From Bacilli bacterium (GTDB lineage: Bacteria > Bacillota_I > Bacilli_A > RF39 > UBA660), in NCBI GenBank assembly GCA_017525035.1, contig JAFXTH010000014.1, positions 7,650-71,649 of the forward strand: DNA of 64,000 nucleotides, written 5' to 3'. How positions within the stretch are numbered: position 1 is the stretch's first letter; the number at the start of each line of letters is the position of its first letter. Positions 2,020-26,800 of this stretch are shown here, piece after piece. Made by a program: the position numbers and the translations under genes. The notes below the pieces were generated by a model. It worked only from the letters and a program-made list of their open reading frames with translations, was not told the origin of the DNA and made no database searches.

Positions 2020-3681
2020 ATGGTAACAAACAAGACTTATTCATACGGAATTAGATATAAAGTTATTAAACTTGACGAAGATGAATACATTCTAAAGCCA
2101 GAGGCATTAGAAGGTGGATTATCTGATAAAATTGCATTTTCTTCTGATAATGGGATTTTCCCAATATTAAGAAATAAAAATAGTTTTACTAACAAATCTT
2201 TAGTTAGCAAAATATATTTTACTGATGAACTTGAGCAGATATATGATTATGAAGAAGATACAGATACATTAGGTCAATACTTTTATGCAGATCATGAAAA
2301 TACTCTTTTATATTGTAAGATAGATAAAGATGGGAACTTAAAAATATATGAAGTAAATCTTGATAAATATAAGAAGGGCCCAAGAGCAGTTAGTTATAGA
2401 TTTGATGAAGGAGAAACTCCTATTGCAATACTTAATGAAGCTGCTATTGATGATTTAGATGAAGCACCTGATTTAGAAACAGTAAAAAGAAGACTAGAGA
2501 AGTATAAAGCTTCATTGAAAGATATTGAAAATTGGGAAGAACAAGGAATTACAAGAGTTACTACTACTTATGATAAAATATCAGCAATAGATCTTAGAAA
2601 GACTGTAGAAGATGAAGATGATGAAGAAGAAGTAGAACAAGAAAGAGAAGGTAAAAAACAAGATGCAGTAGAAGTTGCGAAAACTGTTAATGCTATAAAA
2701 CAGGTAGAACCAGAAAGAACTTCAGATATATCGTATAAAGGATTATATGATGCCATTAGTAAAGAAGTATTAGGACATGATAAACAAATAAAAATAATTG
2801 CACGTAAACTTTATTTGAACCATATAGCAAAGTCTGGAAGAAAAGTTAAATCTATTTTAATAACTGGGCCTACTGGTGTTGGTAAAACGCAAACAGTAAA
2901 AGCAGCAGCAAGATATTTGAATGTACCATATGTATATGTAAATATATCTAAGCTTGTTGGTGAAGGTATAGTAGGAATCAAAGTTGAAGACAAACTATAT
3001 GAATTATTTAGAAAGAGTGGTAAAAAATTACCAATTGCTCAAAGGGGATTATTCTTCGGAGACGAATTTGATAAACTAAATTTCTCACAGTTAGATGTTA
3101 AAATGGCTGTTAGGCCATCACTTCTTAGCCTTACTGATGGTGAACCAATTGATGTTCCACAAATTAAAGAAGGACCATTTGATACATCAATGCTTAATAG
3201 AGTATATGGTGGTGTATTTGATCGAATTGAAGAAAAATATAGACATATGGGGTTTGGTGCTACAGAAGAAAAACTAGATGGGGAATTAACTGGTAAGAAA
3301 ATAAAAGATTTAATAATAGAAAAAGGATATTTTACTAGAGAAGAAATAAGTAGAGTACAAGTATTCTTAAGATATGGTAACTTAGATGCAGCGACTAAGA
3401 AACAAATACTATTGAATGTTGATGGAAGTTCATTAAATGATAAGATATTAAGATTTAAAGAAGACTTTGGTGTAGACTTAATTATTTCGGATGACTTTGT
3501 TAATGCATTTATGGATCAAGAAGTAACTGAAGAAGAAGGAATGCGTGATGTTGATACTTCTTTAGAAGAAGTTTTAGGAGAAGCAGAAGAAGAGTTATGC
3601 TTAGCACCTAAGAATAAATATAAAAGATTGATTTTAACAAGAAAAACAGTAGAAGATCCTACACAATTTGATTTAACATAA
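2020..3681 (+). CDS. AAA+ ATPase, ClpX/HslU-like ATPase module with a novel ~270-aa N-terminal region
   Basis: Walker A ILITGPTGVGKTQ and Walker B LFFGDEFDKL. Context (LNVPYVYVNISKLVGEGIVG) resembles ClpX. ATG 2020 sits behind AGGTGGGG. Confidence 0.65.
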   Translation: MVTNKTYSYGIRYKVIKLDEDEYILKPEALEGGLSDKIAFSSDNGIFPILRNKNSFTNKSLVSKIYFTDELEQIYDYEEDTDTLGQYFYADHENTLLYCKIDKDGNLKIYEVNLDKYKKGPRAVSYRFDEGETPIAILNEAAIDDLDEAPDLETVKRRLEKYKASLKDIENWEEQGITRVTTTYDKISAIDLRKTVEDEDDEEEVEQEREGKKQDAVEVAKTVNAIKQVEPERTSDISYKGLYDAISKEVLGHDKQIKIIARKLYLNHIAKSGRKVKSILITGPTGVGKTQTVKAAARYLNVPYVYVNISKLVGEGIVGIKVEDKLYELFRKSGKKLPIAQRGLFFGDEFDKLNFSQLDVKMAVRPSLLSLTDGEPIDVPQIKEGPFDTSMLNRVYGGVFDRIEEKYRHMGFGATEEKLDGELTGKKIKDLIIEKGYFTREEISRVQVFLRYGNLDAATKKQILLNVDGSSLNDKILRFKEDFGVDLIISDDFVNAFMDQEVTEEEGMRDVDTSLEEVLGEAEEELCLAPKNKYKRLILTRKTVEDPTQFDLT

Positions 3682-3755: not shown

Positions 3756-4082
3756 TTGCATCTAATGATACACTTGCTAAGTGAATACTTAAATGATGGT
3801 TATTATGCTTTAGGTAAATATTCAATTACTTGTTGTGCTGCAGATGCTGAGTTTGCTGGGTTTGTAGTAAAATCAGATACAAAACTAGATATGAACGAAT
3901 GGTATGAAGTAGTGGGAGTATTAGAATACGGAAAAGACAAAGATGGTTACAACATACTAGTAATTGATGCAGCAAGCATTACCAAAACAACTTCAAATGG
4001 TGAAAGCCAATATGTGTATACATGCAATAGCTATGGAGATGGCAGTTGCAAGGAAGTAACAAAATATGATTTAGAATACTAA
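3756..4082 (+). pseudogene. orphan C-terminal fragment of a DUF1980/TIGR03943-type protein
   Basis: YSITCCAADAEFAGFVV is the conserved CCxxDA C-terminal domain of TIGR03943 proteins. The usual N-terminal TM half and permease partner are absent, and there is an in-frame stop at 3747. Confidence 0.4.
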
Positions 4083-16890: not shown

Positions 16891-17871
16891 ATGAGAAGAA
16901 GAGGTTTAATATCCGTAATAGTACCAATATATAATGTTAGTGGTTGTGTTGAAAAGTGCATAGATAGTATAATTGTGCAGACGTACAGTGACTTGGAAAT
17001 AATTCTTATTGATGATGGGTCCACTGATGGCAGTGGTGAAATATGTGATAGATACGAAATGCTTGATAGTAGAATAATCGTAGTCCATAAAGATAATGGT
17101 GGGTTATCAAGTGCTCGAAACACTGGACTTAGTGTTGCTACAGGCGATTTTATATCTTTTGTTGATAGTGATGATTATTTAGAAAATTCAATGTTAGAAG
17201 AATTAAAAAAAAATATGGAAGAATTTGATTCAGACATATCAATATGTAATTTTTATTTTGTAGATAAAATGGGGAAAAAGAAAAATTTTCGATTTAGTAA
17301 AAATAATTTTGTTTCCTTTGGGAAAGATAAATTTGTAAATATTCAAAATCAATATGATTATCTAACTGTATATTCATGGAATAAATTATACAAAAAAATG
17401 GTATTTAGTAATATTAGGTATCCAGAAGGCAGAATATATGAAGATTCTTATGCTTTGTGTGATATTTTAAATAATGCCTATAGTGTATCATATATTTTAA
17501 AACCGCTTTATAATTATGTAAAAAGAGAAGATAGCATAACTAACTCTTTTGATACAAATCATTTTGATAAGATTGGTTCGTTTAATAAGAAAATAGATTT
17601 CTTTAATGATAAGGGTTACTTTGATTTAGCAAAAGAAGAAAAAAATAGGAAAATGACCTGTTTAATAATTAATCTTTCTAAAATAAAAAGATATGGTATT
17701 AAAGATAAAGAAATAGAAAAGAAATATTATCAAGAATTAGTTAATACTAATAAAGAAGTTAAATGGAAAGGTGCCACTAAGTATAATAAGTTTTATAAAG
17801 TATTTAGAAAACCTTCAATAAATATTCTAGCATGTTTGCTTAGAGTGAGAGATTTAATAAAGAAACAATAA
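16891..17871 (+). CDS. glycosyltransferase family 2
   Basis: ISVIVPIYN, LIDDGSTDGS and FVDSDD motifs. Contains an A9 tract at 17206-17214. Confidence 0.85.
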   Translation: MRRRGLISVIVPIYNVSGCVEKCIDSIIVQTYSDLEIILIDDGSTDGSGEICDRYEMLDSRIIVVHKDNGGLSSARNTGLSVATGDFISFVDSDDYLENSMLEELKKNMEEFDSDISICNFYFVDKMGKKKNFRFSKNNFVSFGKDKFVNIQNQYDYLTVYSWNKLYKKMVFSNIRYPEGRIYEDSYALCDILNNAYSVSYILKPLYNYVKREDSITNSFDTNHFDKIGSFNKKIDFFNDKGYFDLAKEEKNRKMTCLIINLSKIKRYGIKDKEIEKKYYQELVNTNKEVKWKGATKYNKFYKVFRKPSINILACLLRVRDLIKKQ

Positions 17872-17873
17872 TA

Positions 17874-17903
17874 AGACATAATCATAAATGATTATGTCTT
17901 TTT
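17874..17903 (+). terminator. rho-independent terminator ending the first polysaccharide block
   Basis: 12-bp stem AGACATAATCAT/ATGATTATGTCT plus T-run. Confidence 0.8.
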
Positions 17904-17962
17904 GTTGAGTTATTTTATCATTAAATATATAATAATAGTTAATTATTAGTATGGAGTTATTT

Positions 17963-20536
17963 ATGCCTAGAATTAGTAGTAGAAATTTTAAAAAAAATAC
18001 AATAGATATCATAGCTAAAAGGGCAGCATATATGTGCTCTAATCCAAAATGTAATAAACAAACAGAAGGACCAGCAGACAAAAAGACAATAAGTATAGGG
18101 GAAGCTGCACATATAAATGCCGTTTCAAGAAATGGTCCAAGATATGATCCGAGTTTGCCCGATGAGTATATTTCCAGTCAAGAAAATGGATTGTGGTTAT
18201 GTAGAGAATGTCATAAAAAGATAGATAACAAAAATGATAGAAGATATACTGTTGAACTTTTAAAGAGTTGGAAAGAACAGAGAGAAACAACAGCAGAAAG
18301 AAATCTTGGGATACCTAGGCCAACAATAGAACCATCAAATTATTCATATAATGAAATAGTAGATAATGAAAATATTAAGAGCAATGACGATAGTATTATA
18401 TTAACTAACAATTATAAACAAATAACAAAAGAATTGCTTAGTAATCTTAATGGTGTTGATGGAGAGTTAGCTAATTATATTTTTAATGACAAGACAAAAG
18501 AATATGAATCTGATTTAAACAATAGCTTAAGTTCTATTATTAAATGGTTTGTAGGGCAAAGAGATTTTCCAGTTAAAGATATTAACACTGTATATGATTA
18601 TTTTAATGCTGAAAAAATAAAAGTAAATAAGAGGGTTCTGAGTAGTAGAAGAAATGCTTTAATTAATTATTTCACTGGAAATATTGACAGTTCAAAAAAT
18701 ATTTATAGTAGATTGTATAACATAATCAATAAAAAAGATTATAAAGTTGATGACTGGATTTATGATGATTATCTTGTGGATGGTAGATTAATTATTGATA
18801 TTTTTGGAAAGGTTAATAAAAAGTACTATGACAATAAGTATGCAATTCAATTATCTATGCAGAAACATTACGTATTTTATCCTTACATAGATAAAATAGA
18901 AAAAGACATTTTTAATTCATCATTTAATAATACAATAAAATACAAGTATAAAAGAAGAAACACTTACTATTATGGAATGGGATTGGAAGGAATTTTCAAT
19001 GATATTCAAAGAGCAGTATTTATAACTATTATATATGGATCAATAGCTAATCTATTAAATATTAGAAATATGATGTCAAAAGTATTAATGATTTATGCTG
19101 ATAGATTAGATGATGATGAACTTTATGAATGGGCATTATTATTCTATGTTATGTGTGGTAATTATGATAACTACAAGTTAATATTAGAAAAAGTATCTTG
19201 TAAATATAGAGGACTAGAATCAGAAAGTTTTATTAGTCGTGTATTAAATTTGCGTAGTTCAATTACAAAATATACTGAAAATAATTTCGATATATTTATA
19301 TATGATACCTTTGGAAGATATCTTGATGATAAAAAATATGATATCTATGAAAGAAGAATATTGAAATTATTAAACAGCAATTATGTACCAGTTGTTAACA
19401 GTACAATTAAAAGTTTATATAGTAACATTCCAAGGTTTAAAAGAAAAGACAAACTTCTTGAATTCTTAAATAAGTATGTAAAAAAAGGTGGTTATAGGCA
19501 AGTACAAGAAGTTATAAAATATCTTAATTATAATGAACTGGGCGGCATTAATAAAAACTTACTAAAGGAAATAATCAAAAAGATAATAGACTCAAAAGAT
19601 TATTTAATAATAACTAATTTATTAGTAGAAATAAAGAAAATTGAAAAAATAAATGATTATGATGAAATTCTATTAAAAGAAAATACAGATGATAATCTCA
19701 TATATGAATTAAACAAAGATAATAAATTTACATCGAGAAAATTACAATTAATAGTTGATGAGTTATCAAAAAGGATTGAAGATAATATAATAACCGGTGC
19801 TGTGACAAGTTATTCGACAAATTATAAAATTTTGCCTAATTTTTTTGATAGAAGTAATAGTTCAAAAGATAGAATAATAACTGAAAATATTTTCCCACTA
19901 TGTGAAAAATGTTTATCTTCAAATAAAGTAGAATATATTGAGAAAATAAAATTATTAAGGACATTGATGTATATATTTTATTTTGATGAAAGATATAGTG
20001 ATAAAATAAAAGATATTGTATCTAAAACAGTTAAGGATAGTAATACTGGTATGTTTGATGAAGAAATAAGTGATGTATTTATAGAAGCCTATTTAATATT
20101 CTTTGACTATGTTTTTGGTGAAATTGATTTTATTGAGATGATAAGAAAATATATAGATATCTCTAATAATGAATATGTGTTTGAAGAAATAGGAATTGTA
20201 CTGGAGCATGTTTTAAAAAAAGAAAGTATAAATATTGAATCGAAAGAAATGTTAATATTATTTATACAACAAAAGATTAATTCGAATATATCAAGTGATA
20301 GAATTACTGCAATTAAACTTACAAGATACCTATATAATACTGAATTATTCGATGAGATATACGATGTTTTATATAGTAGATCAATTGACTCAAGTTACAA
20401 TGAAATGAGAACAATAATGTCAGTTGTAAACGAGTTGGATAAGAGAGACAAAAAAATTAAGGCAATTTGTTATAACTTAATTAATAATAGAAATTATAAT
20501 ATCAAATATATGGGGAAAAAATATTTAAAACAATAA
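17963..20536 (+). CDS. HNH (His-Me finger) nuclease domain fused to a ~750-aa helical region of unknown function
   Basis: CSNPKC...EAAHINAVSRNGPRYD...NGLWLCRECHKKIDN (about 18020-18235). The rest has no recognisable motif. ATG 17963 sits behind GGAG. Confidence 0.6.
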   Translation: MPRISSRNFKKNTIDIIAKRAAYMCSNPKCNKQTEGPADKKTISIGEAAHINAVSRNGPRYDPSLPDEYISSQENGLWLCRECHKKIDNKNDRRYTVELLKSWKEQRETTAERNLGIPRPTIEPSNYSYNEIVDNENIKSNDDSIILTNNYKQITKELLSNLNGVDGELANYIFNDKTKEYESDLNNSLSSIIKWFVGQRDFPVKDINTVYDYFNAEKIKVNKRVLSSRRNALINYFTGNIDSSKNIYSRLYNIINKKDYKVDDWIYDDYLVDGRLIIDIFGKVNKKYYDNKYAIQLSMQKHYVFYPYIDKIEKDIFNSSFNNTIKYKYKRRNTYYYGMGLEGIFNDIQRAVFITIIYGSIANLLNIRNMMSKVLMIYADRLDDDELYEWALLFYVMCGNYDNYKLILEKVSCKYRGLESESFISRVLNLRSSITKYTENNFDIFIYDTFGRYLDDKKYDIYERRILKLLNSNYVPVVNSTIKSLYSNIPRFKRKDKLLEFLNKYVKKGGYRQVQEVIKYLNYNELGGINKNLLKEIIKKIIDSKDYLIITNLLVEIKKIEKINDYDEILLKENTDDNLIYELNKDNKFTSRKLQLIVDELSKRIEDNIITGAVTSYSTNYKILPNFFDRSNSSKDRIITENIFPLCEKCLSSNKVEYIEKIKLLRTLMYIFYFDERYSDKIKDIVSKTVKDSNTGMFDEEISDVFIEAYLIFFDYVFGEIDFIEMIRKYIDISNNEYVFEEIGIVLEHVLKKESINIESKEMLILFIQQKINSNISSDRITAIKLTRYLYNTELFDEIYDVLYSRSIDSSYNEMRTIMSVVNELDKRDKKIKAICYNLINNRNYNIKYMGKKYLKQ

Positions 20537-20548
20537 TTTGATAAAGAA

Positions 20549-20576
20549 GATATACCATTGGTATATTCTTTTTTTG
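20549..20576 (+). terminator. rho-independent terminator
   Basis: AGATATACC-att-GGTATATT hairpin plus T-run. Confidence 0.55.
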
Positions 20577-20598
20577 TTATCTATATGTAAACTTTTAT

Positions 20599-20627
20599 TT
20601 GAATTATATATTGTTCTTTAATATAAT
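20599..20627 (+). promoter_or_regulatory. near-consensus sigma-A promoter
   Basis: TTGAAT (20599-20604), 17-nt spacer, TATAAT (20622-20627). Confidence 0.6.
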
Positions 20628-20781
20628 AGAGGCGAGTAGTCTTATACAAGGATTTTTCAATGTTAATTGTGCTCTTAGACTAAGTTGGTTGTTTAATCAC
20701 AAGTTGGAAGGTTCTGTACAGGGAAGAGATGGTGCAATACCATCAATCTTTTATTTATGCCAACTAGAAGGAGTGATTTTT

Positions 20782-20859
20782 ATGAATTTTAATTTATCTA
20801 TAAGTATAGTAGTTAATGTTTTATTTGCTCTTTTCTCTTTTAGAAAATTCCTTGTATAA
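20782..20859 (+). CDS. 25-aa hydrophobic peptide (type I toxin-like or leader peptide)
   Basis: GAAGGAG RBS 8 nt upstream of the ATG. Peptide is MNFNLSISIVVNVLFALFSFRKFLV. The last codons and stop pair with the predicted mRNA 5' end. Confidence 0.4.
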   Translation: MNFNLSISIVVNVLFALFSFRKFLV

Positions 20860-20891
20860 GAGTATTCGTTGCATAGAAGGAGGATAAAATT

Positions 20892-21575
20892 ATGGATGAT
20901 GATAAATATAAAATTCAAAGAATATATTATCTGTTAGAAGGTATGAGGGATAGTATTGAACCACGTGACGACATAAATGTTGATAATAACACAGTAAAAA
21001 CATATAACATTTTATTGAATGATTTGATGAAGTGTACCGGTGAACCGTTTGAAGCATATAAGTTTGATGACAAAGACACACCATATGGTAGATATTTTTT
21101 ATATAGAATAAATCCAGTTATTAATTATTTAAAGCATATGCATATTGAAACATCTGAGTATCAAATAGAAAAAATAGGGGCATTGTACAAATCTCTTGAA
21201 GATAAAGAACTAAGAAAAAGATGTGAAGACATTCTTTTAGGAGATGCTGCCTTTGATAGAGCAATTAATCAAGCTACACAAGTTTTAGAAGATAGAATAA
21301 AGAAAAAAGCCAATTTATCTAGAACTCCTTTAACAGGGTTAAGCTTAGTTTCAAGAGCTATACACAAGGATTTAAATGAAACAATTATTAAATTAAGTGA
21401 TGAGCCAAATGTCCAAGAGGGTTATTCTAATTTATTTAAAGGAGTAATAGGTATTTACAGGAATCCTACGCATCATTCATTAACTTATAATTGTAGTCGG
21501 GAATATGCTTTAAAAACGTGTGCATTTATAGATGATTTATTAAAAGAAATAGATAAGGGGCAAGTGGTAAAATAA
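20892..21575 (+). CDS. TIGR02391 (Hypoth_Ymh)-type protein with HEPN-like R-N-x3-H motif
   Basis: C-terminal LFKGVIGIYRNPTHHSL...REYALKTCAFIDDLL. RNPTHH lies at 21459-21476. RBS GAAGGAGG. Confidence 0.55.
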   Translation: MDDDKYKIQRIYYLLEGMRDSIEPRDDINVDNNTVKTYNILLNDLMKCTGEPFEAYKFDDKDTPYGRYFLYRINPVINYLKHMHIETSEYQIEKIGALYKSLEDKELRKRCEDILLGDAAFDRAINQATQVLEDRIKKKANLSRTPLTGLSLVSRAIHKDLNETIIKLSDEPNVQEGYSNLFKGVIGIYRNPTHHSLTYNCSREYALKTCAFIDDLLKEIDKGQVVK

Positions 21576-21629
21576 TTATACTGTTAACTAAAATAGGCAT
21601 AATCATTTATAATTGTGCTTTTTCTATAT

Positions 21630-21652
21630 AAAAAAGAGCAGATTAACTGCTC
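21630..21652 (-). terminator. rho-independent terminator on the minus strand
   Basis: Minus strand reads GAGCAG-ttaat-CTGCTC followed by T6. Confidence 0.65.
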
Positions 21653-21771
21653 ATGAAAGGATGCTGTACTGTCCTATGTAAAAGTTCCCTATAAACGTGG
21701 ATTTGAGCAGGACAGGTATCTTTGAAAAACAAGATACATAGGGAACTCAAAACCGCCTTCAAAACTTTCAT
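21643..21771 (-). CDS. 42-aa peptide with hydrophobic N-terminus (candidate type I toxin) or structured small RNA
   Basis: Minus strand reads TATAAT...AAAGGAG-10 nt-ATG. Peptide is MKVLKAVLSSLCILFFKDTCPAQIHVYRELLHRTVQHPFMSS. The coding region is packed with inverted repeats and followed by a terminator. Confidence 0.35.
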   Translation of the reverse strand: MKVLKAVLSSLCILFFKDTCPAQIHVYRELLHRTVQHPFMSS

Positions 21772-21982
21772 TTTTATATTTCTCCTTTCATTAGTATTAT
21801 ATAATATTAAGTTACAAAACAAATAATAAAGCATATTAATAAATTACATTCTCAATATTTGCGACTAATTCTCAGTTTAAGAGATTGAAGTTCTTATGAC
21901 ACATCTAGTACTATTGAGTTGTAATTGATGTCTTGCATCTTATTTTTATAATAATATGCATGGTGTTGAAGTAGGAGGATTA

Positions 21983-24115
21983 ATGAAGTTAGAATTTTTA
22001 AAATTGAAAAAAGAAAATATTTTTTGTGATGATTTTAACCGTCTTAGTAGAAATAACATTATTGATTTTGATGAATCAAAAATAAATATTTTATATGCAC
22101 CAAATGGTGTCGGTAAAAGTACATTTTGCAAAACTTTAAAAGGTGATGGTGAGTTTGAGCTTAATTATAATGGGATATCTTATGACAATACTAATTGCAA
22201 TATCTTTCATATTATAAGTGACCAAAACAGCAGAAACATCATAGAAGGTGATGCTAAAGATTTTTTACTTGGTGATAATATTGTAAAAGAATTTGATTTA
22301 AGAGAGTGGCTTAATCAAAAGTTTTTAGATATATTTAATACACTAAAAGGTAGTTATAAAGATAAGTTAAACATAGCAAAAAAAACTGATAAGAAAATAG
22401 AATGGCTTGATAAAGATAGTGTGGAATTAGTTCAAAGAATAACAAAGAATGGCTCAAAACCAGCTGACATTGATTTAGATGATTATTTAAGTTATATATC
22501 TAGCTTAGAACAGGTGGAAATTGGTGAGTATGAAGAGGAAAAGTTAGAGTATATTAAAAATGATTCAAATACGGAATTGATAAACGAATTATTAAATATA
22601 AGGGATATAACAGGAAACGAAAAATTCTCAAAAATAGAACAATGCGATGATGCTGTGCTAATACTTAATAAGTATCATGATTTAACCAATTGTATTGTAT
22701 GTGATAACGAAAATATAAATGCTGATGACCTAATATCTTCGAAAAAGCAGCAAAAAGATGTTATAATTAATGGGCTTGATATTAGGGATAAAAACATATT
22801 AGATAGAATAATCAATAGAATTTCAGATGATGATGTGTTTGACATTAAGCACACTCTTACTAATGCTATAGTTACGGGAAGTATACAAGAAGTAAATGAC
22901 TTGTTGGCTACTATTAATTACTATAAAACGGTTTTTTCAAAAATATCAAACAATATATTAAAAAACTCAATTCCTATTGAATTTATTGAAAAATATAATG
23001 AATATAAGATTATGTTGAGCAATGAATTGAATTTTTCAGATGAAGATCTTCTTTTTATTGAAAAGTTTATAGCAGATAATATTGGTAAAGAAATAAAATT
23101 GTGCCGTAAAGATAAGAAAATAGCAATAACGCTTAATTCTGAAGATTTTTTAGGAGTTGAACGTCAGAACTTAAAATTAAGTTCTGGAGAACAAAACTTT
23201 ATTTCTTTGACCTTTGAATTGTTGAAAGCTAGAAATATGCAACAAGAAATAGTAGTAATAGATGATCCAATTTCAAGTTTTGATTCTATTTTTAAAAATA
23301 AGTTAGTTTTTTCAATAATAAAATTTCTTGAAAATAAAAACGTAATAATTTTGACACATAATATTGATTTAGTAAGACTTATTGAATATCAAAAAAAGGG
23401 TAATTATGGACTCTATATATTTAATAATTATGAAGGACAAGAGAATGGATTTATTAATATTTCAAATAATGAAAAAAATATTATGATATCTATTCCTGAA
23501 TTACTTAATTTTATTCGAGGAGATCAAATTGATAATGATATTAAAGATGAAAGAATGTTTCTGTACTCATTAATCCCATTTATGCGTGGTTATGCAAATT
23601 TTATTGGCGATTGTGGTAGTAAAAACTTATTAAATAATCTTATGCATGGATATAAAACAGAAATAGTTGATTTAACAGCAATATATAATTCATTTTTTTC
23701 AAAAAAAAATAATAATAACTATAGTATTAGTGTTAGTGATTTGCTTTCAACTGATATTAATACTATTCCAGTAATAATTGATAATGAAAAGTACCCACTT
23801 TTAAATAGAGTCTTATCAAATAATTTTGTTTATTTGTTTTTAAGGCTTAAAACTGAAAAAACTTTAGTTGATAAATATGTTATAAATACCAATCATAAGG
23901 ATCAGTTGGCAAGTATAATTTATGAAGCCTTTAAAACTGACACACCAGATAATATTAAGATGAAAGTCTTCTTTTTTTCGAAGAAGACATTGCTTAATGA
24001 GTTCAATCATTTTGATGGTAATATGAACATATTCCAACCTGCAATTGATATTTCTGAAAAAATATTAAATAAAGAAAAAAGTGAAATAATTGATATGTTG
24101 AATTCTTTATTATAA
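21983..24115 (+). CDS. AAA_13-type ABC ATPase, RloC/PrrC-like (candidate anticodon nuclease)
   Basis: Walker A APNGVGKST, a long insert containing CIVC (22691-22702), signature LSSGEQ, Walker B VVIDDPISSFD, and a ~230-aa C-terminal domain. ATG 21983 sits behind AGGAGG. Confidence 0.55.
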   Translation: MKLEFLKLKKENIFCDDFNRLSRNNIIDFDESKINILYAPNGVGKSTFCKTLKGDGEFELNYNGISYDNTNCNIFHIISDQNSRNIIEGDAKDFLLGDNIVKEFDLREWLNQKFLDIFNTLKGSYKDKLNIAKKTDKKIEWLDKDSVELVQRITKNGSKPADIDLDDYLSYISSLEQVEIGEYEEEKLEYIKNDSNTELINELLNIRDITGNEKFSKIEQCDDAVLILNKYHDLTNCIVCDNENINADDLISSKKQQKDVIINGLDIRDKNILDRIINRISDDDVFDIKHTLTNAIVTGSIQEVNDLLATINYYKTVFSKISNNILKNSIPIEFIEKYNEYKIMLSNELNFSDEDLLFIEKFIADNIGKEIKLCRKDKKIAITLNSEDFLGVERQNLKLSSGEQNFISLTFELLKARNMQQEIVVIDDPISSFDSIFKNKLVFSIIKFLENKNVIILTHNIDLVRLIEYQKKGNYGLYIFNNYEGQENGFINISNNEKNIMISIPELLNFIRGDQIDNDIKDERMFLYSLIPFMRGYANFIGDCGSKNLLNNLMHGYKTEIVDLTAIYNSFFSKKNNNNYSISVSDLLSTDINTIPVIIDNEKYPLLNRVLSNNFVYLFLRLKTEKTLVDKYVINTNHKDQLASIIYEAFKTDTPDNIKMKVFFFSKKTLLNEFNHFDGNMNIFQPAIDISEKILNKEKSEIIDMLNSLL

Positions 24116-24179
24116 AGTATATGTTCACTTGTGTATACATTCGTTTTTCTATGTTATTATCTTTTTGAGGTGACCAATT

Positions 24180-24788
24180 ATGACCAATATATTATTACAT
24201 TTCAATATAAGAGTTGTCTATAATCAGTTTAAAGATAATGAGACTGATACTAATTATGATATTAAAGAGTTTATTGATTCTAATATGACATTAAAAGAAT
24301 CTATTGATTATATTTTTAACTTATATAATATTAAATTATCTAAAGAACAAAAGAAACATAAGTATACTAATTTACCTGAATATATATTTGGATGTTTTAG
24401 TTCATCATCTTTTGATTATAATGAAGATGAAGTTATGAACACTAAGATAGGTGTGCTTGAAGAATATTTTAAAATATCTGAAAGAATACTTTCTATACAT
24501 TATGTAGATGGTATTGGTGGTACTCTTGGAGAAAGTGAAGGAATAATATATTTTTTTCATACAAGAGAAAAAGATCTTCATAATACTCCACATATTCATT
24601 GCTGGTATTCTGGTGAAGAGTTTAGAGTGAATCTTAAAACTTTAAAGATAATAGATGATTCTTTTAAATCAAGAAAAAAGACTAAACTAGCTATGGAAGT
24701 AGTTACTAGAAATAAAGATGAATTTATTAGAATATGGAACTTAGCAGTAGTGAAAGGTCTTCCCTTTGAGTTTAAGGGAGAAATATAA
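24180..24788 (+). CDS. DUF4160-like domain protein with a ~110-aa N-terminal extension
   Basis: IYFFHTREKDLHNTPHIHCWYSGEEFRVNL resembles the DUF4160 core (..F....H.PPHFHA.Y.g.e..). Confidence 0.4.
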   Translation: MTNILLHFNIRVVYNQFKDNETDTNYDIKEFIDSNMTLKESIDYIFNLYNIKLSKEQKKHKYTNLPEYIFGCFSSSSFDYNEDEVMNTKIGVLEEYFKISERILSIHYVDGIGGTLGESEGIIYFFHTREKDLHNTPHIHCWYSGEEFRVNLKTLKIIDDSFKSRKKTKLAMEVVTRNKDEFIRIWNLAVVKGLPFEFKGEI

Positions 24789-24837
24789 GAAAGTTATATT
24801 TTAGTAAAATTTAATATATTTAACTTTGAATATTTAG

Positions 24838-24877
24838 AAGTACTAAGAAGAATTAATATTTTTCTTAGTACTTTTTT
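24838..24877 (+). terminator. rho-independent terminator
   Basis: 12-bp stem AAGTACTAAGAA/TTCTTAGTACTT plus T-run. Confidence 0.75.
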
Positions 24878-24953
24878 ATTGAATTTAATAAATTGCTAGT
24901 TTGTAATACTTTTGATATTGAATTATTATTAGTTCCTAAGAAGGAGAAGTAAG

Positions 24954-25751
24954 ATGAATAACATAGAAATTAATAATAGTTTATTTGAAGATATTAAACA
25001 TGTTGATGAAGAAGGTAACGAATATTGGAATGCACGAGAACTAAAAAATGTGCTTGGATATGTTCAGTGGAGAAGGTTCAACGACGTAATTAATAAATCT
25101 AAAGATGCATGTAAAAATAGTAATTACAATGTGGTAAACCATTTTGCCGACATTGGCAAAATGGTTAAGACTGGAAATTCAATAAGAAGAATTTTGGATT
25201 ATAAATTAACTCGATATGCTTGCTATTTAATTGCACAAAATGGAGATAGTAGAAAACAAGTAATTGCTCTTGCTCAAACATATTTTGCAATACAAACTAG
25301 AAAACAAGAACTTATTGAAAAAGAATATGAGTTGTTAACAGAAGATGAAAAAAGACTATATCAGAGAAATTTAACAAAGAAAGGGAATTATTCTTTAAAT
25401 CAAGTTGCTAAAAATGTTGGTGTTAAAAACTTTGATAAATTTCATAATGCTGGATATAAAGGTTTGTATAATGGTGAAACGGCAAATGATATTGCTAAGC
25501 GTAAAGGATTAAGATATAGAGAAGATATTTTAGATAATATGGGAAGTGTAGAATTAGCTGCTAATTTATTTAGAATAACACAAACGGAAGAAACTCTTAA
25601 GAATAAAAAAATAAAAGGTGAGAACAATGCTAGTAAAACTCATAATAAAGTTGGTAAAATAGTTAGAAAAGCTATTAAAGATGCTGGTGGAACAATGCCA
25701 GAAGACCTGACTACGCCTGATAAGAGTTTGAAAGAATTAGGGAAAAAATAA
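24954..25751 (+). CDS. dinD: DNA damage-inducible protein D (DinD family)
   Basis: WNARELKNVLGY..W..F..VI.K....C, KLTRYACYLIAQNGDSRKQVIALAQTYFAIQTR. Confidence 0.7.
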   Translation: MNNIEINNSLFEDIKHVDEEGNEYWNARELKNVLGYVQWRRFNDVINKSKDACKNSNYNVVNHFADIGKMVKTGNSIRRILDYKLTRYACYLIAQNGDSRKQVIALAQTYFAIQTRKQELIEKEYELLTEDEKRLYQRNLTKKGNYSLNQVAKNVGVKNFDKFHNAGYKGLYNGETANDIAKRKGLRYREDILDNMGSVELAANLFRITQTEETLKNKKIKGENNASKTHNKVGKIVRKAIKDAGGTMPEDLTTPDKSLKELGKK

Positions 25752-25777
25752 TATACGTTAGAATAGTATATGTTTTT

Positions 25778-26251
25778 ATGTTCATAATAATCATGGTGAT
25801 TATTATGGAACCTTATTTAAATAATCTTGCTTCTTCTCAAACATTCTTGACTATTATCTCTGGTACTTTTGTATATATCTTAAGTCAGTTCTTTATGGAG
25901 TTTATAATTGTACCTAGGAAAGATTATAAAAGAGTAAAAGAAAAGATTATATATCATGTTAAGATGTATTCACTGTATTATTTAAATCCTTATGATTTAA
26001 ATAATACAAATAATAATACTAGAGATAAAGCTGAATACGATAATGCTAGTCGTGAGATTAGACAAGTAGGGGCAGAACTATCTAGTTATATTGGTCTAAT
26101 GAGTAAGATTAGATTTATTAGAAGAAAAAGATTATTAAAAGTACAAGATGCTTTAATAGAATTATCTAGAGGGTTTATTTATAGGAAGAATAATCCTATT
26201 AAAGATAATAAAAGAGTTGTTAAGATTATTGAAGATAATTTATACAAATAA
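25778..26251 (+). CDS. small membrane-anchored hypothetical protein
   Basis: One N-terminal TM helix (LTIISGTFVYILSQFFMEFIIV). Start is ambiguous (25778/25793/25805). Confidence 0.45.
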   Translation: MFIIIMVIIMEPYLNNLASSQTFLTIISGTFVYILSQFFMEFIIVPRKDYKRVKEKIIYHVKMYSLYYLNPYDLNNTNNNTRDKAEYDNASREIRQVGAELSSYIGLMSKIRFIRRKRLLKVQDALIELSRGFIYRKNNPIKDNKRVVKIIEDNLYK

Positions 26252-26273
26252 AGATGTCATGTTGACATCTTTT
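26252..26273 (+). terminator. rho-independent terminator
   Basis: AGATGTCA-tgt-TGACATCT hairpin plus T-run. Confidence 0.6.
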
Positions 26274-26317
26274 ATTCATGTTTGTATTATAGTAAGTTAT
26301 CTTGGAGTGATTGTTAT

Positions 26318-26800
26318 ATGAAAGAATATATTATTGATTATAGTAAAAGAAATATAGAATTAGAAGAAGAGAAGAGTAAAAGTATTATTAAGGGTTGCAG
26401 TACTTTAGTACTTCTTAATGCTTTATTACTTATTCCTTTAGTAATTGCATTTTTAGAATTATTAAAGATTGATGATATTAGACTTTTTACTATCATATTT
26501 GGATTTACTATTATTGGTTTATTAATAGCAAGTATTATACTAGCTCTTCTTGGTTTAATACTTAATAAATCTTGTTTTACTAGATCTGGTAAATCATTAC
26601 TTAACTCATTATCTAAGAAAGACACAAGTAAGAAAGAATACTTTTTAGATCAAACAATTAGTGATTTAGATTCAATTTATTTAAGAAAACATATAAATAA
26701 TAGTGTTAATAAAACATTCTTATTTATATCATTTTCTCTTAATTGTGCTGCTTACTTAGTTCTAATTGGGGCGGTTATTACTATTATGATTTTTATATAG
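26318..26800 (+). CDS. small multi-TM hypothetical protein
   Basis: Two central TM helices and one C-terminal TM helix. ATG 26318 sits behind GGAGTGA. Confidence 0.5.
   Translation: MKEYIIDYSKRNIELEEEKSKSIIKGCSTLVLLNALLLIPLVIAFLELLKIDDIRLFTIIFGFTIIGLLIASIILALLGLILNKSCFTRSGKSLLNSLSKKDTSKKEYFLDQTISDLDSIYLRKHINNSVNKTFLFISFSLNCAAYLVLIGAVITIMIFI

Follow-up and report, generated by a model that had tools for sequence, protein, structure and literature searches.

RESULTS

Organization of the locus

In the 64-kb window, by which we mean the whole stretch of DNA that was analyzed, a Ymh-type gene is preceded by a promoter and a short region in which a small open reading frame is enclosed by complementary ends. 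The features of this region, all on the plus strand and numbered from the first letter of the window, are as follows.

20570 to 20598, plus strand: 5' edge of the conserved unit, consisting of the T-run of an upstream terminator and an A/T-rich stretch before the -35 box
20599 to 20627, plus strand: sigma-70/sigma-A-type promoter TTGAAT-17-TATAAT, with a predicted start near 20634-20635
20633 to 20658, plus strand: 5' arm of the closing helix P1, with a conserved core at 20635-20658
20668 to 20701, plus strand: P2 hairpin (UGUG/CACA plus UUAGAC/GUUUAA), from the RNAalifold consensus of five variants, 10 of 10 pairs invariant
20702 to 20765, plus strand: P3, in which AGUUGG (20702-07) pairs with CCAACU (20760-65) in the consensus fold, enclosing P3a
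20722 to 20752, plus strand: P3a, a G+C-rich, terminator-like hairpin (GAUGGUG-CAA-UACCAUC) with the extension GGAAGA/UCUUUU, followed by a U-rich run
20767 to 20773, plus strand: Shine-Dalgarno (SD) sequence GAAGGAG of the mini-ORF, predicted to be mostly paired
20782 to 20859, plus strand: mini-ORF of 25 codons, coordinates with the stop included, intact in five variants
20825 to 20834, plus strand: P4, the pyrimidine tract UUGCUCUUUU within the ORF, a predicted partner of the SD region 20767-20776
20843 to 20868, plus strand: 3' arm of P1, spanning the last codons and stop of the mini-ORF and forming the 3' edge of the conserved unit
20876 to 21575, plus strand: Ymh/TIGR02391 HEPN-like gene, the downstream cargo, with its SD GAAGGAGG at 20876-83 and ATG at 20892

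The product of the downstream gene matches Pfam PF09509 (2.2e-16) and TIGR02391, and its motif R190-N-x-T-H-H195 is invariant among 25 Ymh homologues. The element ahead of it is single-copy within the window.

The element is a bounded unit at a variable defense hotspot

Four further variants of the element were found beside that of the window, the five being 85-97% identical, with three different upstream and five different downstream neighbors among them. Every copy found lies at one chromosomal hotspot, which runs from a glycosyltransferase gene to a DUF4160 gene, and is flanked there by differing defense genes; at the flanks of the hotspot, namely, the DUF4160 gene on one side and the end of the glycosyltransferase gene with terminator X on the other, the loci match the window at 83-89%. 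The element itself is 93-97% identical in L045, L051, and L053, and is thus better conserved there than the flanking coding DNA, while the L050 element is as diverged as its flanks. This high identity could stem from recent strain-to-strain exchange instead of selection. In L045-type loci, the reverse transcriptase (RT) adjoining the element belongs to the Abi-P2 class (PADLOC, 8.1e-166). An nhmmer profile of the five variants revealed no additional copies in the window or in 54 loci, searches of phage and plasmid collections with the element (blastn) and the peptide (tblastn) gave no match, and neither did DNA patterns, exact or degenerate, that were looked for in viral and JGI metagenome contigs.

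The sequence-only reading had placed a consensus promoter, TTGAAT-17-TATAAT, at 20599-20627, and it is present there. Matches to the promoter pattern are in general uninformative, with 76 found versus 78 expected in shuffled sequence; what supports this one is comparative data, since both hexamers and the 17-nt spacing are kept across all variants, including L050, in which seven of the first nine spacer bases are altered. L054 retains TTGAAT-17-CATAAT although its leader is deleted.

Homology with L039, L045, L053, and L050 starts at 20570-20572, upstream of which the genes and terminator hairpins differ, and its 3' limit among the variants falls at 20864-20866, at the 3' arm of P1. The conserved unit is therefore 20570-20866 of the window: a promoter followed by an RNA of approximately 235 nt that ends exactly at the 3' arm, so that the unit reaches 63-65 nt upstream of the left arm of P1 and 0 nt past the right arm. 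A MITE-like repeat of the Correia, ERIC, RUP, or BOX type was rejected, as the conservation is not bounded by inverted repeats and the copies found all lie at the one hotspot.

A scan of the window detected no terminator-like site from the 3' arm up to the start codon that follows it (20868 to 20892), and none was visible after the ORF in L039, L045, L053, or L050. The gap from the 3' arm to the next start codon is 23-30 nt in the window and L039; in the window, 23 nt separate the arm from the Ymh start codon and 8 nt from the Ymh SD. From the lack of a terminator after the ORF in any of the five contexts, we infer that the RNA should continue into the next gene.

The ends of the predicted leader RNA are complementary to each other

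As had been claimed from the sequence, TCTTATACAAGGA at 20640-20652 and TCCTTGTATAAGA at 20849-20861 are exact reverse complements of each other. The end-to-end helix is larger than first described, with arms of 26 nt at 20633-20658 and 20843-20868 that are 88% complementary and make up the second-longest inverted repeat in the window. The -10 box ends at 20627 and P1 begins at 20633-20635; the predicted start at about 20634 thus coincides with the first pair. When the 5' arm is paired with the 540 nt that follow it, the best duplex has an energy of -32.8 kcal/mol, compared to -14.1 ± 2.1 kcal/mol in 1000 shuffles (z = -9.1), a value that none of 1500 random 27-mers drawn from the window reached. 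The complementarity of the two ends is far above chance. Folded as a whole, the 242-nt RNA has an energy of -63.2 kcal/mol (z = -4.34). In a sample of 2126 windows of 235 nt from both strands, it belongs to the four with the most stable folds, although its G+C content is lower than that of the others.

The complementarity is also conserved at related loci, P1 being retained in all five variants. Changes in its core only preserve or create pairs (C/U opposite G20860; U/C opposite G20636), and the position opposite G20639 is G, U, or C among the variants, i.e., a mismatch, then G-U, then G-C. L050, the most divergent copy, still yields z = -4.35 with a 19-bp terminal helix. A comparison of loci by folding and covariation, as the sequence-only reading had proposed, gave a consensus fold (RNAalifold, five variants) but no covariation, with 0 of 76 pairs doubly substituted; compensatory double substitutions are lacking because the copies are too similar (at least 85% identical). 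Support for the modeled structure comes from thermodynamics and from the distribution of substitutions. Mapped onto the consensus structure, variation affects 9 of 143 paired and 19 of 75 unpaired columns (p = 1.7e-4), all five single-sequence folds show the same trend (p from 0.0003 to 0.12), and invariant sites have a higher mean pairing probability (0.69) than variable ones (0.47; p = 4e-4). A branched fold is favored by four of the five variants; for the window, the rod-like MFE structure is one among several A/U-rich alternatives. A local hairpin, 20650-61/20703-14, was rejected as a conserved metastable structure, its 3' strand being deleted in L050 and a C-A clash being present in L039.

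These data bear on whether the block might be a recombination scar or anchor that has no RNA function beyond the promoter and offers homology for cassette exchange at the hotspot, in which case an inverted duplication would have left the helix behind and recent horizontal exchange would account for the high identity. The lack of covariation is compatible with such a scar, as are the mosaic structure of the islands, which carry other conserved linkers between their variable genes (terminator X; a block at 21835-21886), and the different ways in which the element decays in L050 and L054. However, no inverted duplication is visible beyond P1: the whole element was rejected as a degenerate palindrome or inverted duplication, since its interior shows no such symmetry (p = 0.72), which is limited to the two 26-nt arms. 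Moreover, the changes in P1 are all pair-preserving, with one mismatch repaired stepwise, substitutions are scarcer at paired sites by a factor of three to four, and L050 retains its stable fold despite having diverged like its flanks. We therefore hold a scar to be quite improbable.

Inner helices and a terminator-like hairpin

The sequence-only reading had also noted CCAACT at 20760-20765 and AGTTGG at 20683-88 and 20702-07, and all three are present. In L050, the 5' strand of P3 is deleted, and the other AGUUGG copy (window 20683-88) is still available. Within P3, hairpin P3a is the sole terminator-like site in 20540-20960 (0.1 expected) and was also detected in L050. Its stem is identical in all six leader copies, L042 included, its loop differs in L050, and the GGAAGA/UCUUUU extension shows variation at one of its pairs in L050 and L042. 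The U-tract 3' of P3a is interrupted (AAUCUUUUAUUUA), and half of it falls within the extended stem. P3a could act as an attenuator.

Alternatively, the locus could encode an independent small RNA, either an RNA of approximately 115 nt ending at P3a (about 20634-20752) or the RNA of approximately 235 nt excised at P1, e.g., by cleavage of the duplex by RNase III, that would act in trans or on an island protein. A unit made up of a promoter and an RNA with mutually pairing ends is what such a gene would look like; its one terminator-like hairpin is found in every copy with a stem that never changed, substitutions avoid paired bases, and the part of the leader up to the SD occurs separately in L042. 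Against it stand the broken U-tract of P3a, the absence of an Rfam match at E ≤ 10, and the lack of a nameable target or partner, a fixed protein partner being unlikely because the neighboring genes differ in every context. We rate an independent small RNA as rather unlikely.

The mini-ORF is open and hydrophobic but lacks a coding signature

The ORF described previously runs from the ATG at 20782 to the TAA at 20857-20859 and encodes MNFNLSISIVVNVLFALFSFRKFLV; the GAAGGAG reported as its SD is found at 20767-20773, 8 nt ahead of the ATG. The unpaired probability of this SD is 0.02-0.04 in L039 and L045, 0.20 in L053, and 0.31 in the window, these being the four variants that retain it, whereas a 4-nt deletion destroys it in L050. 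The peptide has a GRAVY of 1.50, rising to 2.3 for its hydrophobic core (residues 5-20), and of 1.1-1.7 among the variants. The frame is open, with no frameshift or stop, in five full-length variants and hydrophobic in four of them, and most replacements swap one hydrophobic residue for another. Non-synonymous changes among the five variants number 10 and synonymous ones 2, with 3, 4, and 5 variable sites at codon positions 1, 2, and 3, respectively, and no third-position excess. The L039-type variant, which was the most frequently recovered, carries V10E, S8N, and A16T, placing a Glu in the hydrophobic core, and in L054 the leader is deleted and the mini-ORF rewritten. By these sequence comparisons, the 25-aa peptide is free of detectable purifying selection or a coding signature. 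It matches no peptide family in Pfam or NCBIfam (E ≤ 10 and E ≤ 1).

A different, real gene, which encodes a soluble protein of 75 aa, starts from the same leader, SD, and ATG in L042; this junction shows that the left part of the element works as a modular expression signal. We rejected the mini-ORF as a truncated remnant of this 75-aa gene, as ungapped peptide and DNA identities were not convincingly above those of shuffles (p = 0.02-0.44, only the L039 variant falling below 0.05), and the local alignment with L042 that is significant takes in the leader and SD and reaches no further than about 12 nt past the ATG. For the long form of L042, a 5'/3' helix was not significant (p = 0.43).

The sequence-only reading had likened the locus to a type I toxin-antitoxin system, and part of that picture stands, namely, the anatomy, the closing helix, and the paired SD, while a terminator, an antisense promoter, and purifying selection were not found. 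Under this explanation, the ORF would encode a 25-aa membrane toxin whose mRNA is silenced by the 5'/3' helix and SD sequestration, with an undetected antisense or overlapping RNA as the antitoxin, and an addiction module would explain persistence at the hotspot while the neighbors change. A small hydrophobic ORF whose SD and spacing are optimal, the prediction that this SD is mostly paired in every copy that retains it, a closing helix like those of the hok and AapA1 mRNAs (PMC5416894; PMC9841398), an ORF kept intact with largely conservative replacements, and an autonomous unit retained in a mosaic island all fit a toxin. Nonetheless, no terminator follows the ORF in any context, and a consensus scan of the window and L050, limited in its power, detected no minus-strand promoter-like site within the conserved unit; the single such match, 20918-20889, lies in Ymh-specific DNA that the other contexts do not have. 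The excess of non-synonymous changes, the charged core of the commonest variant, the loss of the SD in L050 and of the leader in L054, and the use of the same leader, SD, and ATG by a soluble protein in L042 likewise speak against a toxin. Described type I families (Fst, Hok, Ldr, TisB, Ibs, TxpA/RatA, and others) gave no match in Pfam, NCBIfam, or Rfam; an Rfam search of 19500-22500 on both strands (E ≤ 10) returned only noise, with no RNA or antitoxin family, and at the sequence level no described RNA family matches the element. Altogether, we regard a type I toxin as unlikely, though worth keeping in view.

The leader is not specific to the HEPN-like gene

The same reading had offered, as a fallback, a regulatory leader of the HEPN-like gene. 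A leader fits the data better than a toxin, but one specific to HEPN-like genes does not, since the downstream gene changes. A conserved leader or riboswitch of Ymh genes was rejected as well, the element being missing upstream of the readable homologues of 43-68% identity (L001-L009, L034/35, and L037), and blastn and nhmmer found no copies in L001-L038, of which the L038 sequence holds just 9 nt upstream of the Ymh start codon. The Ymh SD is predicted to be single-stranded (unpaired probability 0.96). It is predicted to be free with or without P1, and no obvious on/off switch for the downstream gene is therefore visible.

Two other kinds of RNA element were considered and rejected. The first was a retron msr-msd RNA, for seven island proteins scanned contain no RT domain and the element occurs without an RT elsewhere; the AbiP2-type RT of L045 has no tblastn match in the window and, being of the Abi-P2 class, is no retron RT. 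The second was a ToxI-like RNA of a type III toxin-antitoxin system, Tandem Repeats Finder (minimum score 30) having detected no tandem repeats in 20500-22000.

DISCUSSION

The reading that we favor, and to which we would give about an even chance, is that the element is a portable promoter with a structured 5' leader for whichever defense gene follows. In this model, 20570-20866 would be a self-contained transcription-start module in which a sigma-A-type promoter is followed by a structured leader RNA whose first transcribed bases pair approximately 200 nt downstream to form P1, closing a multi-branched fold that encloses P2, P3 around the terminator-like P3a, and P4, in which the SD of the mini-ORF meets the pyrimidine tract inside the ORF. 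The module would be resident at a variable defense-gene hotspot in a group of A+T-rich gut bacteria that are related to one another, staying there as its neighbors on both sides are exchanged, and because no terminator lies behind it, it would supply a promoter and 5' untranslated region (UTR) to the next gene, here Ymh. Some of its parts are dispensable, as L054 does without the leader and L050 without one helix strand and the SD.

The role of the fold is most likely post-transcriptional. A base-paired 5' end, possibly together with a ribosome held at the strong leader SD, may protect the mRNA from 5'-end-dependent RNases, and P3a may terminate a fraction of the transcripts. The mini-ORF would then probably be a translatable leader ORF or a by-product, not a selected toxin; that it is open and mostly hydrophobic is not demanded by a pure leader model and counts against the leader reading.

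A more elaborate possibility, which we consider a long shot, is that the element is a plug-in control RNA for toxic defense effectors. Here the resident promoter would drive a leader with a four-way junction in which the last codons and stop of the mini-ORF lie inside the closing helix, so that translation of the mini-ORF opens or closes P1, or else the mini-ORF is in addition an addictive toxin. The stability or output of effector mRNAs (HEPN RNase, PHP-ATPase, and others) would in this way be coupled to the translational state of the cell, e.g., during phage takeover.

Defense islands are usually described gene by gene, and here it is a non-coding unit that forms the constant part of the hotspot: promoter, structured leader, and mini-ORF stay while strains swap protein genes, and in most variants they are better conserved than the coding DNA beside them. 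A leader that did govern the stability or output of the mRNA would give unrelated and potentially toxic effectors one regulatory handle in common, and it could help explain how newly acquired defense genes are expressed safely. Should the mini-ORF prove to be a toxin, it would represent a new type I family from uncultured gut Firmicutes with an unusual co-transcribed layout. The locus also illustrates how a type I signature that looks like a textbook case in one sequence can weaken when a handful of related loci are set beside it.

Several known systems share features with the portable promoter and leader that we favor. With hok/Sok and Helicobacter aapA1/IsoA1, it has in common a strong promoter, a small hydrophobic ORF, pairing ends, and an SD predicted to be sequestered, and the full-length AapA1 transcript is untranslatable owing to its fold (PMC5416894). 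Unlike these, it has no detectable antisense RNA gene, lacks its own terminator, shows no trace of a 3'-processing site, and encodes a peptide under no detectable purifying selection, and its RNA most likely runs into a defense gene. Like integron Pc/attI, attC hairpins, and the Vibrio VCR, it is a conserved non-coding block with a dyad that adjoins exchangeable genes and provides a promoter. In contrast to integron arrays, it is present once per island and not once per cassette, and no integrase or other recombinase was found among seven island ORFs scanned (17951-26800). An attC identity was rejected, since the interior is not palindromic, and a defining feature of attC is therefore missing. 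Its conservation is also asymmetric, unlike that of cassette junctions, because the promoter lies outside the left arm.

The STAB-SD of Bacillus thuringiensis cryIIIA is a 5'-UTR stabilizer in Firmicutes. As with STAB-SD and Bacillus subtilis hbs, the 5' end of the leader is predicted to be paired by a long-range helix, of 13-19 bp compared to 14 bp in hbs, and its strong SD could hold a ribosome that blocks RNase J1. In the hbs mRNA, the interaction that links the 5' UTR with the 3' UTR, together with a ribosome at a strong SD, controls the access of RNase Y and RNase J1 (PMC5737220). In the element described here, the 5' end finds its partner within the leader itself, where the mini-ORF ends, whereas in hbs the partner belongs to the gene's 3' UTR; and, unlike hbs and STAB-SD, the leader described here is a portable unit common to unrelated genes.

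Promoter, arms and mini-ORF

The element consists of a promoter and a predicted leader RNA of about 235 nt that includes a mini-ORF, with the following features in window coordinates (P2 to P4 as predicted by RNAalifold from five variants).

20599-20627: promoter TTGAAT-17-TATAAT
20633-20658 and 20843-20868: inverted-repeat arms, 26 nt, 88%
20640-20652 and 20849-20861: complementary 13-mers in closing helix P1
20668-20701: helix P2
20702-20707 and 20760-20765: helix P3 (AGUUGG with CCAACU), enclosing P3a
20722-20752: terminator-like hairpin P3a
20767-20773: Shine-Dalgarno sequence (SD) GAAGGAG, with ATG 8 nt further on
20767-20776 and 20825-20834: helix P4, SD region with UUGCUCUUUU, plus a hairpin within the ORF
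20782-20859: mini-ORF, 25 codons

The promoter, 13-mers, mini-ORF, SD and CCAACT opposite two AGTTGG copies, all described in the sequence-only reading, were confirmed when the sequence was read (20300-21200), and the arms exceed the pairing described there, forming the second-longest inverted repeat within the 64-kb window. The arm duplex has an energy of -32.8 kcal/mol, compared to -14.1 ± 2.1 when the targets are shuffled (z = -9.1), a value matched by none of 1,500 random window 27-mers. For the 242-nt RNA, the predicted folding energy is -63.2 kcal/mol (z = -4.34), which ranks it among the best four of 2,126 sampled windows despite a G+C content below that of the others.

Because promoter-like matches in this 25% G+C DNA are no commoner than in shuffles (76 versus 78), the promoter requires other support. 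Every copy retains the two hexamers at their 17-nt spacing; the hexamers persist in locus L050 despite an altered spacer (TATATATTG to AAAGCCATG), and locus L054 retains TTGAAT-17-CATAAT with the entire leader gone, its promoter fused straight to a rewritten ORF. This retention lends the promoter comparative support.

A constant unit in a defense hotspot

Since the frame holding the mini-ORF is open across 87 codons, its translation was searched against 1.84 billion representative proteins; the single match, a 75-aa call with 89% identity, corresponds to this frame in a homologous element. Copies gathered from the contigs of this match, and from contigs reached via a neighboring 75-aa gene family, gave five distinct full-length variants including the window, plus two partial forms (L042 and L054).

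Full-length variants: identity to window; mini-ORF peptide; upstream genes; downstream genes
Window; reference; MNFNLSISIVVNVLFALFSFRKFLV; HNH gene; Ymh, AAA_13
L053; 97.3%; ...LFLFRKFLV; 75-aa gene; protein of at least 505 aa
L045; 94.6%; MNFNFSISIVINVLFALFFFRKFLV; 184-aa gene, Abi-P2-type reverse transcriptase (RT), 75-aa gene; Ppl-like 775-aa ATPase
L039 type (five contigs); 93.3%; MNFNLSINIEVNVLFTLFFFRKFLV; RT, 75-aa gene; 280-aa protein, HTH, PDC-M43A/B
L050; 85%; MNFNFSISIVVNFWFSLFFFRNFLV; 75-aa gene; 361-aa protein

In the window the element sits in a defense-type gene block that interrupts a polysaccharide gene cluster and encodes an 861-aa protein carrying an HNH nuclease at its N terminus, after the element the 227-aa Ymh/TIGR02391 protein (PF09509, 2.2e-16), a 719-aa AAA_13 ATPase, a DUF4160 protein and a Bro-N/PDC-S13 protein. 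Every copy occupies the same chromosomal site, with the end of a glycosyltransferase gene and terminator X on the left (window 17700-17902, 84% identical) and the DUF4160 gene on the right (24134-24927, 83-89%). Across the window and L039-L054 this hotspot (window 17700-17906 / 24134-24927) carries interchangeable defense cargo (HNH, Abi-P2 RT, Ymh, AAA_13, Ppl-like, PDC-M43, AAA_15/21), and in L045-type loci terminator X (17867-17906) is duplicated, flanking the 184-aa, RT and 75-aa gene cassette on both sides. The 75-78-aa family (MNNNLILNQKVEEESIKIFNKFLEYVK...) is recurrent in defense islands (L041 741-968, L042 153-380, L043-L054), downstream of MazG-like genes and Abi-P2 RTs and upstream of SLFN-like helicases; it had no Pfam or PADLOC match.

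Homology to the window begins at 20570-20572, the T-run ahead of the -35 box, and ends at 20864-20866, the end of the 3' arm; these edges define the conserved unit as the promoter plus the RNA that the closing helix encloses. Identity of the unit in L045, L039-type loci (L051, L052) and L053 reaches 93-97%, compared to about 84% for the measurable coding flanks, which L053 lacks. The L050 unit has diverged about as much as its flanks. That the unit is a functionless recombination anchor, its similarity kept by recent exchange, is judged improbable. In L050, homology runs beyond the 3' arm (3277-3322 versus window 20867-20909) into what resembles a decayed Ymh SD and first codons, followed by a different 361-aa gene, which suggests that this lineage once had the element-Ymh junction too. 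Within reach of the searches made, the unit is confined to a narrow set of A+T-rich, uncultured bacteria of the gut; its unusual property is that of a constant, portable part of a defense hotspot.

The element is not specific to Ymh genes

The sequence-only reading had offered, as its alternative, a regulatory leader of the HEPN-like gene downstream, which is the Ymh gene. The upstream gene terminates in a hairpin and T-run (~20546-20578), no terminator-like site was found between the 3' arm (20868) and the Ymh start codon (20892), and the Ymh SD is predicted to be unpaired (0.96). The Ymh R190-N-x-T-H-H195 motif, invariant in 25 homologues, is by sequence consistent with a HEPN-type Rx4-6H site. 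Of 241 Ymh homologues, 13 with 43-68% identity had their upstream DNA inspected (loci L001-L009, L034/35, L037 and L038); L036 is the same organism (99.96% identity), and in L038 just 9 nt precede the start codon. The element was absent from all 12 loci with usable upstream DNA, with blastn also negative, and it is therefore rejected as a conserved leader of Ymh genes; the leader idea is favored in the form of a promoter/leader module that is not tied to Ymh.

Several other features were observed around these genes. A second conserved intergenic linker, TCTCAATATTTGAGACTAATTCTCTGTTTTAGAGA, with two short hairpins (window 21835-21886; L045 3403-3453; L053 724-760; L054 ~1580-1625), precedes ATPase-type genes (by Pfam, AAA_13 in the window, Ppl-like SMC_N in L045, AAA_15/21 in L054); it lies within ~15 nt after the element in L045 and L053, and the window has the Ymh cassette (20867-21834) in between. 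In L001, an Abi-P2-like RT (39-1292), 59% identical to the L045 RT, directly precedes the closest genome-derived Ymh homologue (1315-1992, 67%), which suggests a recurrent pairing of RT and HEPN-like genes. Just 5' of the Ymh homologues in L002 (~3940-3985) and L004 (~3930-3985) lies a conserved hairpin and T-run, GCGCTAGTACAGGC...TGTATTGCGC, whose faint likeness to the element's arms is possibly due to chance.

Conservation of the predicted leader fold

P1 is retained in all five variants, so the 5'-3' complementarity is conserved among these copies. Three positions of its core vary, each preserving or creating pairs:

20641, facing G20860: C or U
20862, facing G20639: G (mismatch), then U (G-U), then C (G-C)
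20865, facing G20636: U or C

In L050 the helix is continuous over 19 bp (overall fold z = -4.35). The consensus of the five variants is a three-branch junction closed by P1. P3a is found in 6/6 leader copies with an invariant 7-bp stem; L050 and L042 show variation in one pair of the extension, and L050 also in the loop. L050 further lacks GTTGGAAGGTTC, which makes up one side of P3 as well as of a competing local hairpin, and has lost four SD bases. A separate small RNA that either stops at P3a or is cut out at P1 is judged improbable.

None of 76 pairs changed on both sides among the five variants; thus, covariation is uninformative at this divergence. Variable columns were fewer in paired than unpaired positions of the consensus structure (9/143 versus 19/75, p = 1.7e-4), a test biased by deriving the structure from the same alignment; substitutions also avoid paired bases in all five single-sequence folds (p = 0.0003, 0.004, 0.004, 0.08 and 0.12), and the probability of pairing averages 0.47 where sites vary and 0.69 where they do not (p = 4e-4). 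A decayed palindrome in the element's interior was rejected (p = 0.72).

The mini-ORF and the type I toxin reading

By our own count, the mini-ORF carries 10 nonsynonymous and 2 synonymous changes across the five variants, with variable sites at codon positions 1/2/3 numbering 3/4/5, and hence no coding signature. It is not conserved above the leader (8/78 nt changed in L050), and in the variant recovered most often, Glu, Asn and Thr interrupt the hydrophobic stretch (GRAVY, 1.12 versus 1.50). In favor of the peptide, the frame is free of stops and frameshifts in every copy and replacements are mostly hydrophobic, but with about a dozen substitutions, chance alone could well have kept stops out. 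L042, in which the leader, SD and ATG are fused to an intact unrelated 75-aa gene, employs the SD and ATG for a real gene, so both evidently work as signals.

The sequence-only reading had taken this architecture as the hallmark of a type I toxin. The ORF, SD and 5'-3' pairing fit it: the mini-ORF is small and hydrophobic, its translation signals are strong, SD sequestration is predicted (in the four variants with an SD, its probability of being unpaired is 0.02-0.31), and 5'-3' pairing is shared with hok and AapA1 (PMC5416894). However, the unit has no terminator-like site of its own after the ORF and, in a consensus scan of the window and L050, no antisense promoter-like site inside it, matches no described RNA or peptide family, and shows no peptide constraint, so we do not file it as type I toxin-antitoxin, a reading we consider unlikely. 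A tidier small-protein or toxin candidate by sequence, in having its own terminator unlike the element, may be a convergent gene just past Ymh (21636-21790, minus strand), with SD GAAAGGAG and AUG, a 42-aa ORF (MKVLKAVLSSLCILFFKDTCPAQIHVYRELLHRTVQHPFMSS) with a hydrophobic N-terminus, an intrinsic terminator (21652-21636) and an RNA fold z of -3.5; it had no Rfam match and was not found in any other locus compared.

A proposed resident promoter and leader, and its precedents

With about an even chance of being right, we favor the element as a resident promoter and structured 5' leader for the following defense gene, a comparison that rests on five close variants. The sequence signals, unit boundaries, pattern of conservation and fold statistics are observed, and the transcript ends and the effect on stability are inferred from them. 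The leader would be cotranscribed with any defense gene coming next; protection of the mRNA would come from the paired 5' end and possibly from a ribosome on the leader SD, and P3a might attenuate transcription. The unit would be a variation on a known kind, either the structured leader or the type I-like mRNA architecture. STAB-SD elements are a second precedent for a protective leader. The closest experimental precedent is the Bacillus subtilis hbs mRNA, in which a 14-bp helix between the 5' and 3' untranslated regions, together with a ribosome that initiates on a strong SD, governs access of RNase Y and RNase J1 (PMC5737220).
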